Source: Octopus vulgaris (taxonomy: Eukaryota). From it: DNA of 64,000 bases. A program made the translations under genes and the position numbers. The stretch is taken from the NCBI GenBank assembly GCA_951406725.2, contig OX597827.1, positions 57,412,001 through 57,476,000 on the forward strand, given 5' to 3'. This document shows positions 336 to 61,566 of this stretch, piece by piece (position 1 is the stretch's first letter; every line of letters starts with the position of its first letter). The notes under the pieces were generated by a model. It saw only the letters and a list, made by a program, of their open reading frames with translations. It made no database searches and had not been told where the DNA came from.

Positions 336-1012
336 TACAGGATAAAGATCTTAAATTTTCTAGTCATTAGCAGCCATGTATAGCGCTATTTCATCCTTCT
401 TTCGAATTGTCTGAATGGCATACAGCAAGGCAAATAAATCATGCTAAATTAAACGTTTTATGAAGTTAGACAATACTTATGGAGAGAAAATAGCTTACAT
501 TTCAGAATGCATTCATAAGAAGATTTTTCTGTTTCACCACAGATTGTTAATTGTTCAGAAACAAAGTGAGAAGAGGAGAGAAGGAAAAATTTATCAAATA
601 AAGGTTACTATTTACAGTGAAAACTTTAAAATAAAATTTAACATATTCTAAACGTAAATATGGACCCACTACAAAAGATTTTGTGAGAAAAGTAAGTAGA
701 ATTCTCCATAATCATACACTTGTGCAATGACGCTATTTTATATATTGTCTGAAGCTTTAGTCAAATATCTGGATAAACAGAAATATAAGCTGAGGCCCAT
801 TTGCCCATGATTACTTACCTTCTGTCAAAATTCATTGTTCATGATTGACGGTATATATGCACAAAGCATTCTCCACTTTCATTCTTCTGTTTTTTTAAGT
901 AATTTTTAAAGTCATTAGAGCTCCTCGACACAAGATGAATATTCTCTGTCGGTTACTGAAACCATGATGTCTAATATACTTGTCGTTGCGAGCTCTGATA
1001 GTAACAAATATA

Positions 1013-1240
1013 TTATCTTTTATCTTTTACGTTTCGGTTATTTGACTGCGGCCATGATGGGGCAACGCCATGAAGAATTTTCAGTCGATACGAATCGCCC
1101 CCAGTACTTAATTTTTTGTTTTTAATCTGGTTCTAATCTTATCGGAGTCTTTTGCCGAACTGTTAAGTTATGGCAACGTAAACATACCAACACTGGTTAT
1201 CAAGCGGTGTAGGGGGACAAATACAGACACAAACACACAC
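1013..1240 (-). mobile_element. SINE family C, 3' half
   Basis: Reverse complement of the ...GCCGCAGTCAAATGACTGAAAC...AAAAGA tail and body seen in full copies at 19120 and 49817. Confidence 0.75.
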
Positions 1241-1288
1241 ATACACACATACACACACATACACACACGCACACACACACACGCGCGC

Positions 1289-1331
<43 letters not shown>

Positions 1332-1334
<3 letters not shown>

Positions 1335-1490
1335 TTACGAAAGAAATTTTATATACACACGCTGACATATGACCAACGTTGAACGCCTTATTCGCATAAT
1401 CACCGAACCTGTAACTTAACTATGGTCTATCTATAGCACTTATTCAGCATTACCTGAAACCTTTGGGTCTCAATGACACCATTACCTATC
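1332..1490 (+). repeat. Unclassified interspersed repeat, inverted copy at 32594-32745
   Basis: TATACACACGCTGACATA..CCAACGTTGAAC..TAGCACTTATTCAGCATTAC..CCTTTGGGTCTCAATGAC matches the reverse complement of 32594-32745; both abut (TA)n. Confidence 0.75.
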
Positions 1491-1561
1491 ATTACAGGTG
1501 AGCATATAAGTGCAAAACAAGGTAGAAAAATAGTACTCGAATACCAACGGTTGAGTAATAT

Positions 1562-1661
1562 ACTTTTATTAAAGCTACAAAATTATCACAAAACTGTTAC
1601 CCACTGTCACGTGAAACTCTGAGGAAGAGTCTTGATATAATTTTGTAGCTTTAATAAAAGT
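1562..1661. repeat. Inverted repeat, 25-bp perfect arms
   Basis: ACTTTTATTAAAGCTACAAAATTAT (1562-1586) / ATAATTTTGTAGCTTTAATAAAAGT (1637-1661). Confidence 0.85.
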
Positions 1662-2272
1662 GTGTGAGTGTGTGTGTGGGGGGCGTGCGTGCGTGTTAGT
1701 AAAATTTTTAACAGTATGTTCAGTATGGCAACATAGTGTACACTTAATGACGATAAGCTCCAGATGTCACTGATTACAAAATAACTTTTCTTGTTCATTC
1801 TTCGTTTCAAAGATGACCAAGATTCCACATCTTAGACATCGACAGCACTTCTGAGTTGGAGACCGGATAATCGAGACTGCTCCTCCGTGTCTCCTCATGA
1901 AGAAACTTCCCCGAGATATCATATCGCGCAGTGGGACAAAATTCGAAACCGTATGATTTCAAAGTCAAAGCTTAACCACACCCTATATCCATTTTTCTTT
2001 CTCTCCCTATACATTTCCGTGTCTCCTCTCGGTCTCCGTCACTTTTTCTCTCTCCGTCTTCTGTTTCCCTTCTTTCTCTCTCCCTCTCTTTCCTCTCTGC
2101 TTCTCTATCTTCTTTCTTTTATCTCTCTCTCTATATATATATGTTTGTGTGTGTGTATATATGTGTATGCGCATGTACGTATATATATGAATGTCTTATC
2201 TTTTACTTTGTATGTAAGTATATGTACGTTTGTCTGTCTGTCTATCTGTATGCATGTATCTATATATGTATG

Positions 2273-2306
<34 letters not shown>

Positions 2307-2912
2307 TGTATGTATGTATGTATGTATGTATGTATGTATAGGTTTGCGATTGCATTAGCGCATGATCGAGAGAATTGGTGCATCGGATGAAAACGCCCTT
2401 TCATACTTCGATCTGCTTCGGTTACGTCTCTCCACGCCAAGTTGATCATTCCTTTCATTATCCTCTCAGATTTATCAAATAAGAACCAGAAAAAGTGCTT
2501 TACTAGATATATAGTCGGCTGAAACTTTTTGAAGAATTTGCCCCAGCATGACCGCAACCCAATTAGTGAAAGCAATAAAAGAATAATTGAAGCCCTTACA
2601 CAATGCTTTTAGTATAACTAACATGCAGCTAGCAGCAATTCTGCTACACTTGTAATGTAATGTAATGTAATTCTTCTAAGCAGATTAGCTAGAGATAAAA
2701 TAAGGAATCCATTGAAGTAATAACTATGATCCAGTTCCAGGAATAAAATATTGGGAAAACTAAAAGACCCAGATATCGCCAAAGCGCATAAGATATGCAG
2801 AAGCTTTCAGTGTAATTTGATTGTGCAAGAGAAATTAACACCGAACACACGGTGGAAATCTAAAGAAACAGCATTGGAGCAATCTAAACTAGTAATGCAC
2901 GTGTATAAGCTG

Positions 2913-3212
2913 TTGTGGAGGCGCAATGGCCCAGTGGTTAGGGCAACGGACTCGCGGTCGGAGGATCGCGGTTTCGATTCCCAGACCGGGCGTTGTGTGT
3001 GTTTATTGAGCGAAAACACCTAAAAAAAGCTCCACGAGGCTCCGGCAGGGGGTTGGGGTGGTGACCCCTGTTGTACTCTTTCGCCCCGACTTTCTCTCAT
3101 TCTCTCTTCCTGTTTCTTGAGTAACGCTGTGATGGACTGGCGTCCCGTCCAGCTGGGAGGAACACATACGCCACAGAAACCGGGGAAACCGGACCCATGA
3201 GTCTGGCTAGGT
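2913..3212 (+). mobile_element. tRNA-derived SINE, family A (tail type 1)
   Basis: GTGGAGGCGCAATGGCCCAGTGGTTAGGGC...GGTTTCGATTCCC head with A/B boxes; head near-identical to the reverse complement of 39597-39985. Confidence 0.85.
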
Positions 3213-3609
3213 CTGCGCGCGCGTGTGTGAAACGCAGCATAGTCGGTCGATTGGTCAAGTTCATTTCGCAATCCTCTGATCTCAGTTTCGAGCCCACTGC
3301 ATGATAATTTAGGTGTATATTGTTTTGTAAAGTTTTTGGCCGTGCCCGGGCCTTGTGAGTCGGTTTGGGAAAACGGAACTTGTTCGGAAGTCCGTTGGAT
3401 GAATGGTGTCTATTATTCAATCGCCCAGTCTTGGCACATTCTGTGTCATGCTGGTCCTGCTTAAAGTTTACGCTAAGCGCACATGTGTCTATGGATTACT
3501 CAGCTACTTACACATCAATTCTATGAGTCTGGTACTTAAATTGATCGAACAATTAAATACTTAATCTACATATATCCATTTACTTCTTAGCTTTCTTTCT
3601 ATGTAAGTA

Positions 3610-4876
3610 CCAGAGTAAGTCAAAAATTATACGCATTCTTGTTTCTGTAGTTTACTAAAGCAAAAGCAGGGTTTGAAAAATTACATCATTTTTCGACATA
3701 GATTCCTTCCTTTTCGACGTTCTTCTTCCAGCAGTCCATAAGCTTGCTTATTCTATTGGGGAAGGTTTTCGGCTGGGCGCGCAGCCGTTTATGCACCGCT
3801 TCAAATCAACGATTTCAAATGAGCTGTCCAAAAGCTCTAGACTCTATGCAGGATGTTCCAGCTACTTGAAACCCAGTTTTTCAATGGTTTCAACAGTGTG
3901 GGTGGCTGTGTGTGGACGTGCATTGTCGTACAACAAAACACTTAATTTGACAATAGATCTTGACATTTCGTGTGAATTACTGGTTTCAGTTTGTTGGCCA
4001 GCATTTCACTGTAGCTAACACTGGTGACTGTAGACCTTTTTTCCGGGTAATATTCCAGCAGAGGTCCTTTTGCGTCCCTAAAACGGTTAGCATCACTTTT
4101 TCTGCGGCAGGTTGTCTTGAATTTCTTTTTCGTTGGAGATTCCGAGTATTTCTACTCCGTATTCTGCTTTTTTTTTTTTTTTTTTTGGACTCCGGCTCAA
4201 ATTGATTGACCCACGACTCATCTCTTGTGACTTTTCTCTCCAAAAAATGCTTTGCAATCATCGTTGTAGCGGTCGAGTAAGCGTTGGCAGATCTCTACGC
4301 GATTTCGCTTATGCGTTTCGGTAAGCTCTTTTCACAACCATCTTGCACAGAGTTTATGGAAGTGAAGCTTGTCGTGGATGATTTCGTATGTAGAACAACG
4401 ATTAATTTGCAGAGAACATGCCACCATATCGCTCGTCACTCGTCGGTTCTCCAGGTCCATCTCCCGAGCTTGTTGACTCTCCACGTCAATGGTGGAGGGT
4501 GATCGGCATCCTGCTTTCTCTACGGGCTTCACGTTTGTCCAGTCATTTTTTAAATTCTCGATCTACTCATACACACTTCCAGGCGGCAGAGCGCCGTCAC
4601 CATATAGTACTGAAAGCCTGCGATTAATTTCAGCCCCTGACACACATTCAAACCAGAGAAATCGGATCCCTAATCTTCATTCTTCTTTGGTTCACACTAC
4701 CAACGAAGCGGCCATGTTTACTCTGCAGTAGAAGAATGAAAACTAGAGTGATTAAGATCAAACCTCGGTTACATAACCACAAGAGTACGACCTTTTAGCA
4801 CGCAAGCGCTGAAGGCAGTGCAGCCAAAGTAAAGACCATTTTAGTAAAAGTGCAGATAATTTTTTACCTCCCTTTG
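3610..4876 (-). mobile_element. Decayed mariner transposon (~1.27 kb)
   Basis: Minus-strand peptides ENRRVT..IIHDKLHFHKLCARW and VTRDESWVNQFEPESK..KVMLTV (mariner HTH, WVP-like and first catalytic D regions); degenerate TIRs AAAAATTATACGCA / TGCAGATAATTTTT; frameshifted. Confidence 0.8.
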
Positions 4877-5031
4877 CATGTGTCTATGTATGTATATAAA
4901 TGTGTGTGTGTGAGAGGGTGTATGTATATAAATGTGTATGTGTGTGCATATACCTATACACATACATGTCTCTGTATCTATATTTGTATCTATCTATATT
5001 TGTGTTCGCGTGTAAGTAGAATTACAATTAA

Positions 5032-5199
5032 AAAGGAAAGACGGAAAGCTTCTTACAGTACAAAGAGATAAGTTGAGTAACCTTTATATATTTCAGATTT
5101 AACCGTATTCTTCTGATTGGCCTTTGTGCCTGAAATGTATAAAGGTTACTCAAATTTCCTCTTTGCATTGTTTGCAAAGAAGCTTTCTTCCTTTCCTTT
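5032..5199. repeat. Imperfect inverted repeat (fold-back)
   Basis: Core arms TTGAGTAACCTTTATATATTTCAG (5073-5096) / CTGAAATGTATAAAGGTTACTCAA (5130-5153), extending outward with gaps. Confidence 0.75.
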
Positions 5200-5262
5200 C
5201 TGTTTGTTATCCTACTTGGATATCACGATGCTTCAACCAAACTATAATGCTTTTCTTCCATA

Positions 5263-5652
5263 TGTGGTCTGATCAATAAGTGTTCGGACTGTTACTATAC
5301 TAACGAAGCTAAATCACGGAGAGCAAAGCCGCATCGCACAGATTGATATTGAACTCTGATGTGCATGCGCACTAATTTTTAACGTTCTAGCTCACTTCTG
5401 CAGTTTACAGTAGTGCTTGGAAGCAATGCGTGTAGCGTGTGATCGTTGCATTGACCCTGACAGAAAAAGTTGAGCAGAGAATCTGCATCAAATTTTGCCC
5501 AAAGTTTGGTGATACCTATTCAGAGGCCTACGCAAAGCTTTCAAAAAGTTTTCATCGTTCTCGACACAATCAAGGAGATCTTGTGCAACTGAAACCTGAG
5601 TATCTTTTTGAAAGTAGTTTTGGCACAAACTTGGCAGACACGCGTCTCATAC

Positions 5653-5655
<3 letters not shown>
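5263..5655 (+). mobile_element. Mariner 5' fragment
   Basis: TA followed by TIR-like TGTGGTCTGATCAATAAG; peptide EQRICIKFCPKFGDTYSEAYAKL typical of a mariner transposase N-terminus. Confidence 0.7.
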
Positions 5656-5713
<58 letters not shown>

Positions 5714-6062
5714 TATTATATTATATTAAATTAGAAATAAAACCACTATTAGGCAAATCATACAATGAAAAACTTAAGCCAATACATAAGATTAATTAAT
5801 TTATATTATTTTAAATATATATCAAAATTATTTTTTAAATTATTTAAAAAAGATAATCATTATCTTTTTTTAATAATTTTGATATATATTTAAAATAATA
5901 TAAATTAATTAATCTTATGTATTGGCTTAAGTTTTTCATTGTATGATTTGCCTAATAGTGGTTTTATCTCTAATTTAATATAATATAATATTATACTATA
6001 AAATTGGATTCAATCCTAAATCTGATTTTTCCCTGTAAGTTTGGATTTATTCCCTAATATTT

Positions 6063-6065
<3 letters not shown>
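5714..6065. repeat. AT-rich fold-back element, copy 1
   Basis: ~120-bp near-perfect inverted arms (5714-5832 / 5872-5990) plus tail AATTGGATTCAATCCTAAATCTG..; between (TA)n tracts; homologous to 10841-11150. Confidence 0.9.
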
Positions 6066-6101
<36 letters not shown>

Positions 6102-6674
6102 GAATGGCATCTGCAAATACACACACAAACACTTGACAGTTAGACAGGAAAATAGTTGACAGTTCCAATATTCTATAGAGAATTCTGCAAATAATAAACA
6201 AAAAGATTAACGATGGAACATTTACTTACAGCGAAATACAAACCAACCTGCATACAGGAAATAAAGCATGAAATTCACCAGGAGCCGAGTTGAATAATTG
6301 TGGAACTAACGTTGACTATTTTTATCATTTACAATATTGTTTACGTGTTAAAAGTATGTGGAAGAATCTAAAATCTTGCATTTTCTATAATATTAGAATC
6401 AATATTAATTTTTTTCTGTTGTTAATCGTGTCCTTTAAAAAAAACGCTTAGTTCTAACGCTTCATTATGATAAGAAATGTTTTATTTCAAGAGAAGATAC
6501 TATATAAATATGTAAATATGTGTGTCTGTGTGCGTATGCATGTGTGTGTGTGTGTGTGTCTGTGTAAATATATACGTATATATGTGTGTGCGTGTATACG
6601 TATATACATACACGTGTAACTATGTACGCATACATATAAATATAACTATGTTAATATGTAAAAATATATATATG

Positions 6675-6729
<55 letters not shown>

Positions 6730-6932
6730 GAATAGTCGAATGAATTATCTTATTATGGATAATTCGGTTAACCGATACCTGGGTAGCAAATTTACGTCAG
6801 AAAAACACGGTTGAAGCTACATGCCAAGGGCAGAGATCACGTGCTATCGTGTGGAAATTTGTGTGTATTTTTAAATACAAATAAATGAAAGAATGGAGTG
6901 GAACGATGAATTAACAAAATTCCTTTATTTTA

Positions 6933-7015
6933 TTTTCGACATATGTTTCGAAGGCTGCATATTCCTAATTTCGAAGGAATAAGGGGTGCATTATGCCACC
7001 TTCTCATCAGGAAAA
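6933..7015 (-). ncRNA. Type I hammerhead ribozyme motif
   Basis: Minus strand reads TTTTC-CTGATGA-GAAGG..CCTTC-GAAA-C ATAT G-TC-GAAAA: complete core, stems I, II and III, GUC cleavage triplet. Confidence 0.85.
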
Positions 7016-7084
7016 GTAATGGGCTCCGTGTGGGCAGTCATCTAAACGTTTTTGTGCATCTTGATGCTGACATAAGTTCCTTAC

Positions 7085-7166
7085 TTTTCCTGATGAGAAG
7101 GCGGCATATGCACCCCTTATTTTTTCGAAATTAGGAATATGCAGCCTTCGAAACATATGTCGAAAA
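7085..7166 (+). ncRNA. Type I hammerhead ribozyme motif
   Basis: TTTTC (7085-89) CTGATGA (7090-96), stem II GAAGGCGGCATAT..ATATGCAGCCTTC, GAAA (7150-53), C ATAT G TC, GAAAA (7162-66); predicted cleavage after C7161. Confidence 0.87.
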
Positions 7167-7228
7167 TAAAGGAATTTTGTTAATTCGTCGTTCAACTCCA
7201 TTCTTTCATTTGTGTATATATATATTTA

Positions 7229-8719
7229 TCTCTTATTATAAAAGGCAGATTTTATCTGCCTCCCTTTGGGAGTTATACAAATCTACAATATAGGATTTCT
7301 TCAATTACAATTTACCTGGCAGTTTTAAGAGTACAATGCATCGCGTCATGCCAGGTCCAGTTTTTAAAATTTAAACTCCAGTTAAGCAAAATTTACAGAA
7401 AACTCACATTCTGGTGTGTGTGTCAAATGCTTTTCTTAGTCTGGTTTACACCACACGCAAACGCACACACACAGTGGGCAAGGAATAAAATGAAAGTAAT
7501 TCACTTACTGTAGTGAGTGATTCTTTCACTCTGCTTCCCACTTCCACTTTACACACATAGAAAAAACTTTTATTTTTTTACATAAGTAATGAGAGCGAAA
7601 GAGACTAAGAGAAAGCGATTGTATGACGAGGGAAGTTCCTTTCAAGTTACCGTGCATGGGACTCATTGATGTACATGTGTGTGTGTGTGTGTGTTTGATG
7701 GAGTGTGGGAGACAGACAGTATGTTGTGTAAGTGAAGTGCTTCTGTTAGTGTGTGTGAAGAGACAGAGAGAGTAATGTGTGAAAGAGAGAGATAACTGAA
7801 ATTGTTTACTCGGTTTATGTGTATATGTATGTATGTGTGTGTGTGTGTGTGTGTATGTGTGTGTGTATGTATGTATTTATATATAAAAGAAAGGTTGTGT
7901 GTCTGTCTACTCCGATTTAGATTCCTAACTACTCCCACATTTTGCGATGCAGTTTAACCAAAACCGGGTATCTTATAGTCGTGATTCATATCGAGCCCTT
8001 CTGGGTATTAGCGCGCGTCTACGATGAGTCTATGATTTTACAAATAATTTACCATCATTTTTTTCCATTTTAATGCATATTTTTAAAAATAAACGGAAGT
8101 AACTCTCAAACTTCACACCAATATGCGTGCTCATATGCGACGTAATATCACATCACCAGCATTTCCTCACACTCTCCTTGCACTTGGCGAAGGCAAAATA
8201 CCAGGGGATGAAAATGGTAATATTGCCATCGATTCCATTTGTACCATTGTTAAGACGCCTTCTGATCTCAGAGATGCAGTGTTCCCCGATTTACAAGCTA
8301 ATTATCAGAATATGGATTGGATTGGCAAAAAGGCTATACTGGCCCCGAGGAATAAAACTGTTCACCATATTAATGAGGAAATGCTAAAACTCATTCCTGG
8401 GGAAGTCGATGTATATCAGTCTATCGATACAACTCCTGACCCAGAGGACGTCATCAACTATCCAATAGGGGTACTCAATTCCTTTGAGCACCCCGGACTA
8501 CCACCACACTTTCTCAAACTTAAAGTTAGTGCCCCTATAATGCTCATCAGAAATTTGGTTCCCCCAAAACAATGCAATGGCACACGTTTGGCGTTAAGTC
8601 CTTATCTCCCACCGTAAGCTTATTTCAATATTTGCCTGAATAATCATCATAATTCAGTGCAATCATTAACAGTACTTTCAAGCAATTCAGCCCCGAGCAA
8701 CGCCGGGCAATTCTGCTAG
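7229..8719 (+). mobile_element. Internally deleted Helitron
   Basis: A|TC 5' end (TCTCTTATTATAAAAGG), subterminal hairpin CCCGAGCAACGCCGGG (8692-8707), CTAG|T 3' end, internal helicase fragment. Confidence 0.85.
8123..8617 (+). pseudogene. Helitron RepHel PIF1-like helicase C-terminal fragment
   Basis: Motifs NMRA..LLALGEG..AILAPRNKTVHHIN..YQSID..LNSFEHPGLPPHFLKLKVSAPIMLIRNL..CNGTRL are characteristic of Helitron helicases; truncated at both ends. Confidence 0.9.
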
Positions 8720-8732
8720 TATATATATATTC

Positions 8733-8940
8733 TTTTATTATTTTACTTTGTTTCAGTCATTTGACTGTAGTCATGCTGGAGCACTACCTTTTAATCGAAC
8801 AAATCGACATCAGGGCTTATTCTTTGTAAGCTTGGTACTTATTCTATCGGTCTTTTTTGCCGAACCGCTAAGTTACGGGGACATAAACACACAAGATCGG
8901 TTGTCAAGCCACGGTGGGGGGGGATAAACTCAGGCACAAA

Positions 8941-8970
<30 letters not shown>
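8733..8970 (-). mobile_element. SINE family C, 3' half
   Basis: TTTCAGTCATTTGACTG..GCCGAACCGCTAAGTTACGGGGAC matches family C in reverse. Confidence 0.8.
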
Positions 8971-8976
<6 letters not shown>

Positions 8977-9094
8977 AAATCCAAGCCTAGGGAGAAGAGT
9001 AATGCTGTGTGTTTCATACAATTTCAAGGACCAAAATTACTGAATAGATCCTTATGATATTTGGAACTTAGATTCAACGCATAATAATGATAAT

Positions 9095-9678
9095 GTGACT
9101 CTCATGGCTTCTGATGTTAACTGATTGGAAGTGTTATCTTCTACATTTTTTGTTTCGGTATAAAAGATGGGCTACAGCAAATATTCTGCTCAATGCCACA
9201 TATTTGCTTGTCAGTTGTTTAACCTTAACTAGTTGGGCATGTCCCTTAGTGGCTGACGATATGAGCATCACTGATCACGAGCAGACGTGGTGAGGGAGTA
9301 TCATAGCCATGTGTTGAGAGGAATTCTTTTGGGTTTGAATAATTCACCTCTGGAAACATGGGTGTTTTGTTCAACATCCTTAAACAACCCTTATTCAGGA
9401 ACCTTTTGAGCAGGATGGCCTACACGACCAGAAGAAAATTCTAACTGGGCCCCACCTGCAAGGTCATTTACTGTCTATTTTGATATGAGGTCACCATTTC
9501 AGCACATATGGCTGTGAAGCATGTGCCTGGTGTACGGGTAGTCATGATGGGTATATTGGGCTTCGTATATTTGTACTCCAGTATCACATTCATGATATGC
9601 TCTGCTCTCTCACTCAATAATGATAATGATGATGATGATAATAATAATAATAATAATAACAATAATAATAATAATAAT
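9095..9678 (+). mobile_element. Repeat family D ending in (TAA)n, probable retroposon
   Basis: GGGCTACAGCAAATATTCTG..CCCTTAGTGGCTGACGATATG..CTCTCTCACTCAATAAT shared with 14147-14600 and 17385-17690. Confidence 0.75.
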
Positions 9679-9854
9679 GTCTATATGAATATTCATTTGA
9701 ATATTTACCCATTCACACACACATACGTACATATATATATATATACATATGTATATTTTATATATATATATATATATTTATACATATATAGACAGAGATA
9801 GACAGAGAGAGAGAGAGATACAAATATAAATATATATATATATATGTATGTATA

Positions 9855-9896
<42 letters not shown>

Positions 9897-10252
9897 TAGC
9901 TATAGACGTGAAAATCGCCATTTTCCACGAAGAATGTGTTCTCAAGAAAAACTTCAGCAAAAAAAAAAACAGTGTAAAAATAAGCAAGACAAATGAAAAT
10001 ATACAAAATAAAAAAACGATTACCTATGTGCTAATTAATTTCACTTGTTGATATTTACGTATATGGATACGCACACATCTGCAAGATCATCAACATTTCC
10101 GATATATATATATATACTTTGATACTTTGATACTTTGATAGGTTTCGGCCATTATTGGCCCAGGCCATGTCTAACTTATATATATATACAACTGGCTTCT
10201 ATATATGTATGTATGTTTCTGTGTGTGTGTGTGTATTTGTAAGTGTGTGCGT

Positions 10253-10322
<70 letters not shown>

Positions 10323-10840
10323 ATTTATAACTAACCGATACTCCTATTTCAAAATTACGAGGCGGTTGTGAATAATAATACTTTGGCAATAACACGAGCA
10401 GTACTGTATACATAAACCTCATCTGCAACTATTCATTAATACTATTTTTTTGAATATTTCCATCTATAGTACCAGGGGAGTAACAATATTTTCAAAATGA
10501 ATTTTAAGTACTTAGAACGTCTCCTGAATAAGTGTTCACCATTTAAATGATATCTCTCTCTCTGGATTCATAAAGATTTTAGTTCGGAAGTTTTGTTTAC
10601 AAATATACACTAATTAACATCAGTGAATTATATATCAGATTAAAGTTTGTGAGGCGTCCATAATGACGGAGACGTTATTGAAATATGTACAGGAAGAAAG
10701 TTGCTAAAGGAAGCACGAAGATTTATATAAAAATGCCAAACTAACAAGAAACAGTATGTATGTATGCGTGCGCGTGTGTGTGTACATATACATATACATA
10801 TATATAAATATATTCATAGATAGACATATATATATATATA

Positions 10841-11146
10841 TATTATATTAAATTAGAGACAAAACCTCTATTAGGCAAATCAAACAATGAAAGACTTAAG
10901 CCAATACATATGATTAATTTATATTATTTAAATATGTAACAAAATTATTAAAAAATATAATTAATATTTTGTTACATATTTAAATAATATAAATTAATCA
11001 TATGTATTGGCTTAAGTCTTTCATTGTTTGATTTGCCTAATAGTGGTTTTGTCTCTAATTTAATATAATATAATATTTTACTTTAAAAAATTGGATTCAA
11101 TCCTAAATCTGATTTTTTTCCCTGTAAGTTTGGATTTATTCCCTAA

Positions 11147-11150
<4 letters not shown>
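10841..11150. repeat. AT-rich fold-back element, copy 2
   Basis: ~105-bp near-perfect arms (10841-10945 / 10966-11070) plus the same tail as copy 1; between (TA)n tracts. Confidence 0.9.
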
Positions 11151-11182
<32 letters not shown>

Positions 11183-11997
11183 TAGAGAAACAAAGAGAGA
11201 AAGTGAGTGAGAGAGAGAGTTAGTGAGAGTGAGAGACAGGGAGAGAGAGAGAGAGAGATGTAACACACTGCCTAAATACCAATCTTGAAAAATTAGGCTT
11301 CCCAAAACCAGGAAGGAGAAAGCTAACTCGAAGACTACAGATCCAGTCCATCGCTGGAACTGTAAAAATCTGCAAAGGTTTCCAGAAGTTTATCGTTTAA
11401 ATATATATGAACATGTCTATATATGCAACTATATGCATGAGAATGCATACATAAAGAAAATATAGAAATCTGCACATATATATACATACAAACAAAAATA
11501 CCCTGTTGTTGATGTTGAGATTTCAATGAAGGAGCCTTGGATATAGGTTTGAAACTGGCACTTTCTCTATTGGTAAGAAACCTTGAAATAAAACTGAACA
11601 ATGACATACATACACACATACATACATATTTACTTATTCAGTGGTAGTCCAGGTAAAGTATGTCAGAACAGATGGTATATCGATGTAGTTGGGAGTAAAA
11701 AATTAAACAAAAACAATAAACAAAGACAACAGACAAAAAGGCAACGAAAATACAGGGTAATTATAATGTGAGGAAGAGACAGAGGAGAATTTGACGTTTC
11801 AGACAGAGATCCGTCATCAAGAACAGAAAAGATAAAACGAAAAACAATATCAAGTGGAAAATAAACAGCACGCATATAGTCTGGAGAATGAAAGAACGGA
11901 AATGCGTCAGGCGGCAGAGTATAGAATGGCATTTTGGAGCCGAGATAAGAGAGATGACTACGGTGTAGTTCATGGAAATGTGCTATATTGTTACATA

Positions 11998-12053
<56 letters not shown>

Positions 12054-12057
12054 AAGT

Positions 12058-12376
12058 TGTGAAAGCGCGTGGCGTAGTGGTTAGGGCATTTGGTTCACGA
12101 TCGTGAGATCGTAAGCTCAATTCCCGTCGACGAGTTGTGTCCTTGAGCCAGACAATTTATTTCACGTTGCTCCAGTCCACTCAGCTGGCAAAAATGAATA
12201 GTACATGTATTTCAAAGGGCCAGCCTTGTCACATTGTGTCACGCTGAATCTCCCCAAGAACTACGTTAAGGGTACACGTGTCTGTGGAGTGCTCAACCAC
12301 TTGCACGTGAATTTCATGAGCAGGCTGTTCTGTTGACCGGATCAACAGATTACGTCACCGTAATCAAGGGAGTGCT
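12058..12376 (+). mobile_element. tRNA-derived SINE, family A-related (tail type 2)
   Basis: GTGGCGTAGTGGTTAGGG head, TGTGTCCTTGAGC central block, tail CAAAGGGCCAGCCTTGTCAC..GGGTACACGTGTCTGTGGAGTGCTC shared with 29062 and 39597. Confidence 0.8.
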
Positions 12377-13883
12377 AGCTGCATGCTGCATTTGCATGCG
12401 TGAGGTTATGACATTAAACAGCATCTCGTAGTGGGGACCCGCGTTCAGATGTTTCAGAGTTTTGATGAATGTGGAACCACCTCATTGCCATTATTGTTCC
12501 CAGACCTACTTTGACCAGGAATAGTAGCACCTGCCAGGCCCCAGCTGTGGGTTAAACAGGATGTAATTACCCGAGACAAGGAACGTTGAAATCATAGGCT
12601 GCAAGATTTTTGTGGATGCGAATTATTTCGTCCAGTGAATCTTGTTGAGTCATTGGCGAATGTCCGTAGATTCTGAGCGGATAAACAGACCACAAACTAC
12701 CAACGACCAGGATCAACCAGTTCAATTAGCGAATTATTGCTATTGTCTGCAGTTGGTGTGCGTAGATGAGATATTTCAGCTTACGAAAGACCAGTATGTC
12801 TATAACCCGTGTTAGACATTCGTAACTCATCGCTCAATCACTATGTCTGGCGTGAAAGAGTTAGATTGGTTCAAGCCCGATGCCCGACCAGATGATGCTG
12901 ATGTGTGCGTACATGTGTGCTGAGAAGTGTGTGTGTGTGAGCGTCAGAATGTGTGTGTATGTTCTGAGTAGTGTTTATAGTACGAATATGACGTAATAAT
13001 GTGTGTATGTGTATGTGCGTGTGTGTGTGCGTGTGTGTGTGCGTGATGTGAACTCGAAGGTGTTTATCGGTTTGGGATGCGTATCACATGTAGTGATACA
13101 GGGCGTATTTGTCTGGTGTCCATACCATCATATATCATGTACACCCTCAATTTTTTTTTCGTCTTGGAACATGTGAAAACAAAGCTTTATATTACTTAGA
13201 ACCTTATGAAACACGGCTAACTAAAAGTCTGAAAACAAGCAGGGACGTTTAGAACAAATTTATGAAAATGCATTGGACAGGTAAAGGGTTAAGGAGAAAA
13301 GCAATGTTATTAGAGTAGGGAACGCGATAATTAATCTTAGGTGGATGGATTGTACTTAGCCGTAAAGTATATCGTTGTTCACAATGCGACAGATGGATGA
13401 CCCGTAGTGTTGTACAATAGTATAAACAGCAAGATGCATGATGTTAAGATTAGAGAATTGAAACAGGTTAAATGCCTAAATTATATGCAGAGTTGCGTTG
13501 GGCGTATTCTCTGAAAGGATCAACCAGATACCAACCAGTTTCGTCAATACACAGAAAGTTGCACAACTGGCATTTTATGCAATTATATTGCCTGGCATAT
13601 TATGCAATATAATTATTGTTATATTGCATAAAATGAAAACTCACCAGAACATTCAATGTCAGAAGAAATTGCGGTCCTGGCATTACTCTCTCTCCTTTAA
13701 CTTCCTTGCATATCTCCCGTTCCTCCGTTACCATACGCACGCACAGATGCATCCTGTATCCATCATGTTGTTTTCGATGTATGCTGTTTTTCAATTAGCA
13801 TTTTCTTTCTTATATTTCTGCGTCACTAGTCTTGCAGAAAAAAACCACTGTACGAAAAGTTTAGTTCTCCTCCATTCCTGAGA

Positions 13884-14146
<263 letters not shown>

Positions 14147-14600
14147 AGGGCTACAGCAAATATTCTGTTCAATACCACAGATTTGCTTGTCAGTTGTTTG
14201 ACCTTAACCAGTTGAGCATGCCCCTTAGTGGCTGACGATATGTGCATCTCTGATCACGAGCAGAAGTAGTAGGGGAGCATCATAGTCACATGTTGTGAGG
14301 GATTCTTTGGGGTTTGAATAATTCACCTCTGGAAACATGGGTGTTTCGTTCAACATCCTTAAACAACCCTTATTCAGGGACCTTTTGAGTGGGATGGGTT
14401 ACTCGACCAGAAGAAAAAACCTACTGGGTCCCACCTGCAAATTAATCTTGGTATCTTGATATGAGATTACCATTTTGATTACATATGGTTGTGTACCATT
14501 ATCAGGCAAGTAGTTATGACGAGTATATTGGGCTTCGTATATTTGTACCCCAGTGTCAATTTGATGCCATACGCTGCTCTCTAACTCAATAATAATAATA
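14147..14600 (+). mobile_element. Repeat family D
   Basis: High similarity to 9168-9620; ends CTCAATAATAATAA. Confidence 0.78.
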
Positions 14601-14601
14601 A

Positions 14602-15239
14602 ACCTTTCTAGTAAAGGCACAAGGCCTGAAATTCGTGGGGGAGGAGATTAGTCGATTACATCGACCCCAGTGCGTAACTGGTACTTATTTTTCATCGACA
14701 CTGAAAGGATGAAAAACTAAAGTCGACCTCGGCGGAATTAGAACTCAGAACGTAAAGACGGACGAAATACCGCTAAGCATTTTGCCCAGCGCGGTAACGA
14801 TTCTGCCCGGTTGCCGCCTTAATGGTAATAATTCTGGCACTAGGCCAGCAAGTTCGGTGGGAAGGAGATAAGTAGATTGTATCAACTCTTGTATTCAATT
14901 GGTACTTATTTTTATTGACCCAGAAAGGATGAAAGGCAAAATCTACCATCGAGGAATTCAAACTCAGAACGTAACGCCACACTAATTCCGCCAAGCACTT
15001 TCTCCGGCGGGCTAACGATTCTTATTTCTTTATTGCCCACAAGGGGCTAAACACAGAGGGGACAAACAAGGACAGACAAAGGGATTAAGTCGATTACATC
15101 AACCCTAAAGAAAAATTAACGAAAAGATGAAAAGCAAAAAATGACCTCGACGGAATTTGAACTCAGAACGTAAGGACGGACGAAATGTTGCTAAGCATTT
15201 TGTCCGGTGTGCAAACGATTCCGCCAACCTCGCCGCCTA
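14602..15239 (-). mobile_element. Cluster of three SINE family B copies
   Basis: Three successive GTCGACCTCGGCGGAATTTGAACTCAGAACG..CTAAGCATT blocks, the reverse complement of the family B head and body. Confidence 0.8.
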
Positions 15240-16880: not shown

Positions 16881-17066
16881 TACATTATTTACATTATTTA
16901 CATTCGACATATATTTGTCCTCATCTTGTTTGTTGTTAACACGACGTTTCAGCTGATATACCCTCCAGCCTTCTTCAGGTGTCTTGGGGAAAGTTCGAAC
17001 CTGGGTTCTCATTCCTAAGGTATTTTCCGATGTTGTTGTTGTTATTATTATTATTATTATTATTAT

Positions 17067-32060: not shown

Positions 32061-32321
32061 AATAGTAATGCTAATTTTTGTGTGAGTATTGAAAAAGTAC
32101 CTTCAAAGTGATCATGCACAAAATGCGACATTATCTTGCAATTTAGTATGTGTGTGTGTGTGTGTGTGTGTAATACATTTATACATTGTACTTGTGTGTC
32201 TGTATGTTCGCGTATATATAATAATAATAAAGGGTAAAATTAATTAATCAATTAATAATTAATAATTTTACCAAGTAGTTCGGTATGTTAAAATAACCAT
32301 TATCGGTAACCTTATACAAAC

Positions 32322-32550
32322 ATTCTATAATTATAAGCATAATTATAATTAAGGTTCAGCAAAAATTGCTTCACCACATACTGGGTGGATTCGTTATTTT
32401 TCCCCCTTCACCTGCTTGAGTTGAGAGTATTGCTGTGTGGGAGATATCTTATGGTAGTAGAATATTATTTAACTGCTATTTCTAAATTTCGGTATGTGGT
32501 GAAGCAAAGTTCTGCTGAACCTTAATTATAATTATGCTTATAATTATAGA

Positions 32551-32552
<2 letters not shown>
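32322..32552. repeat. Inverted repeat (~60-bp arms, ~110-bp spacer)
   Basis: ATTCTATAATTATAAGCATAATTATAATTAAGGTTCAGC..TGCTTCACCACATAC mirrored at 32492-32552; abuts (TA)n. Confidence 0.88.
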
Positions 32553-32593
<41 letters not shown>

Positions 32594-38807: not shown

Positions 38808-39444
38808 GGTACTCTATTTTATCAATCCCGGAAGGATGAAAAGCAAAACTGACCTCGGCGGAATTTGAACTCAGATTGTAAAGAACTGGAAGAATTACAT
38901 AAATGGAATATTTCCAACGTTTTAACAATTCTGCCAGCTCACTGCTTTAAACAGTGAGAAAAAAAAATTGTGTTACCGAGTTTCAGGGTGTTCCTTCACT
39001 GAATTGCTTCCTTTCTCTTATACATACTGGAACTAGCTTGTTGTTTTTCTTGTTTGGCACCAAGTCAACGCTGACTGAATAGACCCACAATCAGTCACCA
39101 GCATTTCAGTCATGACCATCTCGTCTTTCTCCCAAACATTACATAAGAATAACTACATTATTCTATGTTCTTGCCTTTTCAAAACAGAGAGATTTGGCTG
39201 CTATTTCTAACAACGTTAACACGTGTAAAAGGGCAGGTATATATAGTATAAGATATTCAGTGTCTAAAATATTGTATAGGACAAGGATGTCCAACCCGCG
39301 ACCCGCGGGTCGCATTACGGCCCACTTAATATTTTCATATGACCCACTGGCGATTCAAATTCTAATTCTATGTTATTTTCTAGTTATATTTTCATTTACA
39401 TTATTTACATTTGACGGATATTTGACCTCATCTTGTTTGTTGTT

Positions 39445-39490
39445 AACACAACGTTTCGGCTGATATATCCTCCAGCCTTCATCATGTGTC
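39445..39490 (-). ncRNA. Hammerhead motif, degenerate copy
   Basis: GACAC-ATGATGA-A-GGCTG..CAGCC-GAAAC-GTT-GTGTT; first core C changed to A, stem II perfect. Confidence 0.6.
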
Positions 39491-39596
39491 TTGGGGAAAT
39501 TTCGAACATGGGTTCTCATTCCTAAGGTATTTTACGATGTTGTTGTTGTTATTATTATTATTATTATTATTATTCAGCCCGCGCTCTTAACCACTG

Positions 39597-49707: not shown

Positions 49708-49743
49708 CTTTCTGTAGAAGAGCGTAGGCTCGAAACGTAAAAG
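49708..49743 (+). ncRNA. Degenerate minimal hammerhead motif
   Basis: CTTT-CTGTAGA-A-GAGC(GTAG)GCTC-GAAAC-GTA-AAAG; one core mismatch. Confidence 0.55.
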
Positions 49744-61531: not shown

Positions 61532-61566
61532 GTTTCTGACAAAGAGCTCCGCTCGAAACGTTAAAC
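61532..61566 (+). ncRNA. Degenerate minimal hammerhead motif
   Basis: GTTT-CTGACAA-A-GAGC(TCC)GCTC-GAAAC-GTT-AAAC; one core mismatch; related to 49708. Confidence 0.55.

Follow-up and report, generated by a model that had tools for sequence, protein, structure and literature searches.

The palindrome at positions 6883–7211 of the window (the whole 64-kb stretch of DNA analysed here) most likely consists of head-to-head copies of the 3′ end of an abundant repeat, probably placed by one insertion by PLE (Penelope-type) machinery and probably inactive at this locus. Each copy carries a motif that we classify as a type I hammerhead, with cleavage predicted, from a repeat mobilised by PLEs; this repeat would be a PLE terminal repeat or else a retrozyme. 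The palindrome itself is ordinary, being known debris of Penelope-type retrotransposition. Less ordinary in this family is the ribozyme, which has a 53-nt bulged helix II and an extended helix I and has no match in Rfam.

Anatomy and folding of the two arms

Alignment of the left arm (6883–7019, minus strand) with the right arm (7081–7211, plus strand), which lie 61 nt apart, gave 126 matches, 5 substitutions and 2 indels (96% identity). A descriptor scan of both strands across the 64 kb revealed one outward-pointing type I hammerhead motif in each arm, and these two were the only matches in the window. Dinucleotide shuffles (n = 200) contained a mean of 0.095 loose matches, and strict matches occurred in none of them. 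The arm alignment, the scan and the strict shuffles bear out the original prediction of a palindrome with a full core in both arms. The plus motif has CTGATGA at 7090, GAAA at 7150 and C17 at 7161, and the minus motif has them at 7010, 6949 and 6938. Both arms contain the type I core (CUGANGA, GAAA, NUH and A15.1–U16.1), a 5-bp proximal helix I, a 53/54-nt helix II domain and the palindromic ACATATGT. The palindromic 15.2–16.2/loop 3 and the G10.1–C11.1 pair are also present. The long stem II and palindromic stem III that had been described were recovered in both arms by the descriptor scan.

The two motifs differ in helix I. Folding paired 7074–7082 with 7169–7177 at nine of nine positions, which lengthens helix I in the plus arm only; the same nine-of-nine pairing is open to 22 of the 63,991 9-mers in the window. 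The full hammerhead (7074–7177, plus strand) has three helices around the core, with helix I open: a 14-bp helix I (9 bp, a 2 × 2 loop and 5 bp), helix II and a 2-bp helix III. Its core lies at 7090–7096 and 7150–7153, and it is predicted to cut after C7161. The helix II domain of this arm (7097–7149) was modelled as 6 bp, a G·A, 5 bp, an 11-nt bulge, 5 bp and an 8-nt loop, and its palindromic helix III occupies 7153–7160. Helix I has its internal loop, and helix II has no loop at the canonical position. For a contact between loops I and II, the best pseudoknot candidates, formed with the helix II bulge or loop, reached only 5 bp and were unconvincing. The left arm is a 5′-truncated inverted copy of the element's 3′ end that stops at the helix I internal loop. 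Its truncated hammerhead (6933–7015, minus strand) has a core at 7010–7004, a helix I of 5 bp and a predicted cut after C6938. The minus arm lacks the distal helix I strand because seven of the nine bases of this 5′ strand sit in the 'spacer' (7020–7080).

This asymmetry was also apparent in fold stability. The plus unit folded with a z of −3.85 (1 of 200 shuffles equally stable), and the minus unit with a z of −1.54 (15 of 200) and a predicted shape that is not a hammerhead. Active-fold probabilities were about 9e-3 for the plus unit and 1e-4 to 3e-5 for the minus unit; because tertiary contacts and Mg2+ are absent from the folding model, the ranking of these values is meaningful and their size is not. 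The large ribozyme fold is thus predicted to form well in one half of the palindrome only, and the minus arm, whose core is intact and whose fold is not, is predicted to misfold. The claim of two intact ribozymes therefore holds for both cores and fails for the fold of the minus arm. Similarly, the 5-bp stem I reported earlier describes the proximal helix I of each arm and overlooks the 9-bp distal extension on the plus arm.

Rfam hammerhead models gave no match at the gathering score across the 64 kb, and no hammerhead was among the 30 Rfam matches up to E 10 in 5500–7500. Rfam and short-spacer descriptors miss hammerheads with a long helix II, so counts of cephalopod ribozymes are likely too low. 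The window also contains five other fold-backs and three other motifs that resemble minimal hammerheads. The latter, at 16943–16978 (minus), 49712–49739 (plus) and 61536–61562 (plus), have the extra nucleotide and the ACGT palindrome typical of PLEs, and two of the three carry one core mismatch; a relative at 39394–39574 has a broken core. Fold-backs at 1562–1661, 5014–5217 and 32313–32561 have arm identities of 89%, 83% and 93%, and a decayed hammerhead-like stretch is visible by eye near the middle of 5014–5217.

The repeat family and the origin of the palindrome

The window is eukaryotic DNA rich in microsatellites and repeats. Part of the stretch was found in 20 of 24 listed sequencing runs (8 studies, 4 organisms), none of them recorded as RNA, which is uninformative about expression. 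We aligned four runs (X1, X3, X7 and X22) to 7020–7290. Contigs aligned from X1 (2,395), X3 (1,489) and X7 (84), counts that include the 79-nt right flank, itself a repeat, and whose summed depth is not a copy number. The raw-read run X22 was uninformative, with 1 of 12.9 million reads aligned. The repeat that starts near 7225 (7225–7290) is abundant in three runs and may be the 5′ end of an element, likely a Helitron, that includes a Pif1 helicase fragment at 8093–8617 (plus strand); the best named matches of this fragment are Octopus bimaculoides proteins, at 74% identity, which makes an octopus the likely host.

The spacer and the arm belong to a repeat family that is abundant in runs of two organisms. 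Contigs from X1, X3 and X7 cross from spacer to arm without a break, and the spacer is therefore element sequence, namely the element's own upstream part, in which 7074–7080 lies within the 5′ strand of distal helix I. It is not a neutral gap, as it is family sequence and supplies the distal helix I strand of the plus arm. The right arm is the 3′ end of the element, and several of the listed contig pieces stop at 7206–7211. Behind 7202, 13 X3 and 2 X7 contigs run on into a different, A/C-rich sequence, which resembles the optional PLE tail as far as the available text on such tails describes it. Loose ends before 7146, in 11 X1 contigs (agreement 0.81) and 12 X3 contigs (0.70), are suggestive of a divergent subfamily in which the long helix II architecture and a distal hairpin in it are retained and the proximal stem is different. 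Scans for exact patterns yielded no match in the metagenome, viral or prokaryote collections. We found no description of the family in the octopus and cephalopod hammerhead literature or the long-helix-II literature, in which Lunse 2017 and Arkhipova 2017 may contain similar variants.

Two joints touch the element among the contigs: a 75-nt skip in X3, and 7029 joined to 7113 on opposite strands in X7. The latter is a fold-back with a different junction, represented by a single contig at a depth of 3.8. Were the palindrome itself the amplified unit, as a MITE-like or fold-back element, its small size and its long, 96%-identical terminal inverted arms would be accounted for. We consider this very unlikely. 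No opposite-strand joint at 7020/7081 was listed in the three contig runs, in which aligned pieces of less than 140 nt could hide one, and the one opposite-strand joint that was listed has a different junction. In X1, X3 and X7, the 3′ part was also more deeply covered than the spacer, summed depth being a rough measure; 5′ truncation would give this pattern. Finally, such an element would be at odds with the absence of a clean target-site duplication (TSD): we found only an unconvincing, low-complexity 11-nt near-duplicate at 6858–6868. The junction is AT-rich, and its TA-rich right side (7212–7230) is the likely target site. The palindrome has no clear one-sided tail, junction microhomology was at chance level (3 of 7 positions), and the 64-kb window contains neither a second copy of the palindrome sequence nor a head-to-tail copy.

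The preferred explanation, an insertion of PLE type, would proceed as follows. A reverse transcriptase (RT) with a GIY-YIG enzyme would nick an AT-rich site and start cDNA synthesis at the 3′ end of the element (7211). The first copy would extend through the ribozyme and 61 nt more, to 7020. A second, inverted copy would begin at the same 3′ end (6883) and halt at the helix I internal loop (7019); it would result from fold-back on the newly made cDNA, or else from priming on the second of the nicked strands. In the source element, the ribozyme is predicted to cut the precursor RNA after C7161, with help from a protein or from dimers that pair through ACAUAUGU. That the palindromic helix III is compatible with dimers, as was proposed earlier, is suggested by the palindrome itself and fits published dimer behaviour. 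No RT or GIY-YIG domain was found in the 87 reading frames scanned in 448–14647.

The alleles of the two arms bear on how many templates were copied. A7083 is present in both arms and rare in the family (2–5% of depth), indicating that the arms share a source subfamily. The five substitutions between the arms are all absent from the listed family polymorphisms. Two of them, in the left arm, are transitions of CpG type, and a CC>TT at 7122–7123 is almost confined to the right arm; neutral decay would produce such differences. Both indels are family variants: an A added behind 7107 (33–51%) and AAAAT added behind 7162 (0.3–4.7%). This pattern fits one template with recurrent slippage as well as two related templates. 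In the neighbourhood, an AT-rich fold-back family in (TA)n has two copies, at 5704–6062 and 10820–11155, whose arms are some 120 nt long. Their spacers measure 39 and 9 nt, and both copies have the same extension, about 70 nt long, on one side. One mismatch separates the arms within a copy of this family, against 6–8 between copies, a contrast that speaks for copying from a single template, or for conversion between arms, in this family. Its copies resemble PLE-type insertions of a Naiad-like kind that lack a hammerhead.

A further proposal, which we advance tentatively and regard as rather unlikely, is that octopus genomes contain an abundant, undescribed family, mobilised by PLEs, with a full-size, actively selected hammerhead in which loop II has become a 53-nt bulged domain, and that its head-to-head insertions are made from two RNA templates. 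The two-template part of the proposal stems from the arms sharing rare subfamily alleles yet differing at two family-polymorphic indels. If it were true, the genome would bear evidence that a dimeric PLE enzyme primes on two strands, and the 53-nt domain might be an RT-binding or switching module in a ribozyme invisible to Rfam and short-spacer descriptors. Two features are modest leads: the large fold of the ribozyme, and the way alleles are distributed between the arms. The value of the palindrome is as a specimen: a large hammerhead, predicted to be well folded, with natural variation in its family. Its inverted copy ends at the helix I internal loop, and the alleles that the arms share or do not share could, across an alignment of many copies, separate fold-back from two-template priming.

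Read-through and selection

The original prediction held that read-through transcription would lock the ribozyme in a duplex of about 130 bp, and folding supports this: RNA of the full palindrome is predicted to form a near-perfect hairpin of −226 kcal/mol. For the plus ribozyme, the modelled cost of the active fold was 104 kcal/mol in a transcript starting at 6883, 13 kcal/mol from 7008, 3.8 kcal/mol from 7014 and 2.9 kcal/mol from 7017–7074, so that as little as 12 nt of left arm raised it to 13 kcal/mol or more. The palindrome copy would thus yield a locked ribozyme on read-through and a free one only in a plus transcript starting at about 7014–7074. The expectation that a start in the spacer would give two free ribozymes did not hold up: the spacer belongs to the plus copy, as its 5′ part, and the minus copy has the 5-bp helix I and the low active-fold probability given above. 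The plus ribozyme is the only one that could be freed from the lock.

The thermodynamic robustness of this locking, the two intact cores and a possible bidirectional promoter in an Adineta pLTR (available parts of PMC3846280) all accord with the view first taken of the locus, as a selected host switch in which a bidirectional spacer promoter drives two ribozymes that read-through silences. We give this view hardly any credence. Misfolding is predicted for the minus arm, which has no distal helix I; neither a promoter nor a nearby gene was identified; and core integrity is at chance level. All seven differences between the arms do lie outside the core, as had been noted, yet seven events in 132 nt miss a 13–15-nt core with P 0.43–0.48; intact cores are thus expected by chance (P about 0.45), and the locus shows no selection. 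The A>G differences of X7 (possibly RNA), which could have indicated A-to-I editing, recur in DNA runs, and we therefore rejected editing. An ORF start inside the ribozyme, as in an anole element, was likewise unsupported: each of the three plus frames either stops within it or has no start that continues past the arm.

Variation in the family gave a different, weakly positive answer to the question whether the core is better conserved than its flanks. The runs yielded 29 substitution rows above a 4% threshold, 20 of them within 7074–7177. None of these 20 falls on any of the 11 core positions that are invariant; a pair is kept in 9 and broken in 2, another 8 lie at unpaired sites, and the last changes C17 to U. 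For the core, 0 variants were observed against 2.0 expected (p 0.12). For structure, 2 damaging variants were observed against 6.0 expected under random placement (p 0.013), in a test with unphased variants in which a pair could be rescued by a variant of the partner base and the register of distal helix II was picked with the table already seen. The expectation became 4.8 (p 0.06) after dropping the 3 rows in which the palindrome copy is the odd one, and 5.8 (p 0.042) with all 29 rows. The variants 7085 T>C (42–50%) and 7166 A>G (25–30%) are compatible with compensatory change. That common variants tend to spare the structure is suggestive of a fold kept in source elements, with selection there and not on the palindrome.

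Comparison with PLEs and retrozymes

PLEs make up 6.83% of the O. vulgaris genome, in 190 families (available part of PMC13282606), an abundance that, with the likely octopus host, fits the PLE reading. Both the role of their hammerheads and the origin of their inverted copies are treated as open questions in the available parts of PMC8557442, PMC3846280 and PMC11167929. According to the accessible text of PMC11167929, a PLE protein that is predicted to dimerise cuts and extends both strands, and a PLE hammerhead is assisted by protein and dispensable for insertion in vitro.

Nine short probes compared with the Naiad, Chlamys and Hydra consensi, in the portions available, gave no family match and one unrelated 10-mer; line breaks in these sources can hide a probe. 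A link to Naiad was rejected, as the probes were unmatched and the palindrome element bears no resemblance to Naiad_Obim at the displayed 3′ end. In PMC8557442, as far as it was available, Naiad_Ovul is annotated 'HHR_half_core', with halves 35–50 nt apart, and File S1 marks eight Naiads, two of them from cephalopods, in this way and with this distance. PLE-X1_sMoe, in the part of the same paper that describes it, has a hammerhead with a long helix II domain like that of the palindrome (a 9-bp stem and a long loop 2, which together are about as long as the 53-nt domain) and is marked as deviating from canonical. It differs in being a spike-moss, EN-minus, rDNA-targeted element, and its displayed sequence has no apparent likeness to the palindrome.

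Non-LTR retrozymes, covered by PMC7229834, PMC7761336 and bioRxiv 10.64898/2026.07.22.740005, raise a possible, if doubtful, alternative for the family: a retrozyme (tandem 150–400-nt monomers, circular RNA), with the palindrome an inverted partial dimer inserted by machinery borrowed from PLEs. Compared with the PLE reading, the source element would be of another nature, and the palindrome would have arisen in the same way. In the available descriptions (Cervera and De la Pena 2020, PMC7229834; Li et al.), invertebrate retrozyme hammerheads resemble that of the palindrome in their canonical-type core without an extra nucleotide, their extended helix I with an internal loop, and their 2-bp helix III with a tetraloop. 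The palindrome element has no long reading frame, and, like its family, non-LTR retrozymes are non-coding and of high copy; they are also proposed to be PLE-derived and are often present as monomers. However, we found no tandem array or head-to-tail copy in the 64-kb window, and no go-back joint between element ends was listed among the contigs, whose aligned pieces are shorter than 140 nt. Unlike these retrozymes, the palindrome motif has no loop II at the canonical 4-bp position; a canonical helix II has 4 bp in the available part of PMC4209133, against a 53-nt domain here. In PMC3088659, as far as it was available, one extra stem II pair lowered the activity of a pseudoknotted motif.

The minimal hammerheads of metazoan PLEs share several features with the palindrome in the accessible portion of PMC4209133 (Cervera and De la Pena 2014): they are type I, with a G10.1–C11.1 pair and a palindromic helix III, and dual motifs lie on opposite strands 100–700 bp apart. 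They cleave at a low level, as dimers only. The palindrome motif lacks the extra nucleotide that follows CUGANGA in their consensus, G10.1 directly following CTGATGA, and it has a 14-bp helix I with a 2 × 2 loop and a 53-nt helix II, whereas theirs has a helix II of 7–8 bp and a short loop. In lacking the extra nucleotide and having an extended helix I, the palindrome motif is more like retrozyme hammerheads.

In overall layout, the palindrome is close to the pLTRs of EN+ PLEs, as available in PMC3846280 (Arkhipova et al. 2013) and PMC8557442 (Craig et al. 2021). The former describes head-to-head pLTRs, with self-priming proposed; the latter describes the inverted 5′-truncated copy and 30–40-bp tail of PLEs and, in Penelope-13_HM, one hammerhead motif on each strand. 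Unlike these pLTRs, the palindrome has no attached ORF and no clear TSD or tail. Like them, it has its 3′ ends outward, one copy shorter at the 5′ end, an AT-rich target and a hammerhead near the 3′ end. The inverted, 5′-truncated copy adjoins the 5′ end of the other head to head, which, together with the published PLE layouts, supports the PLE-type inverted copy suggested by the original prediction.
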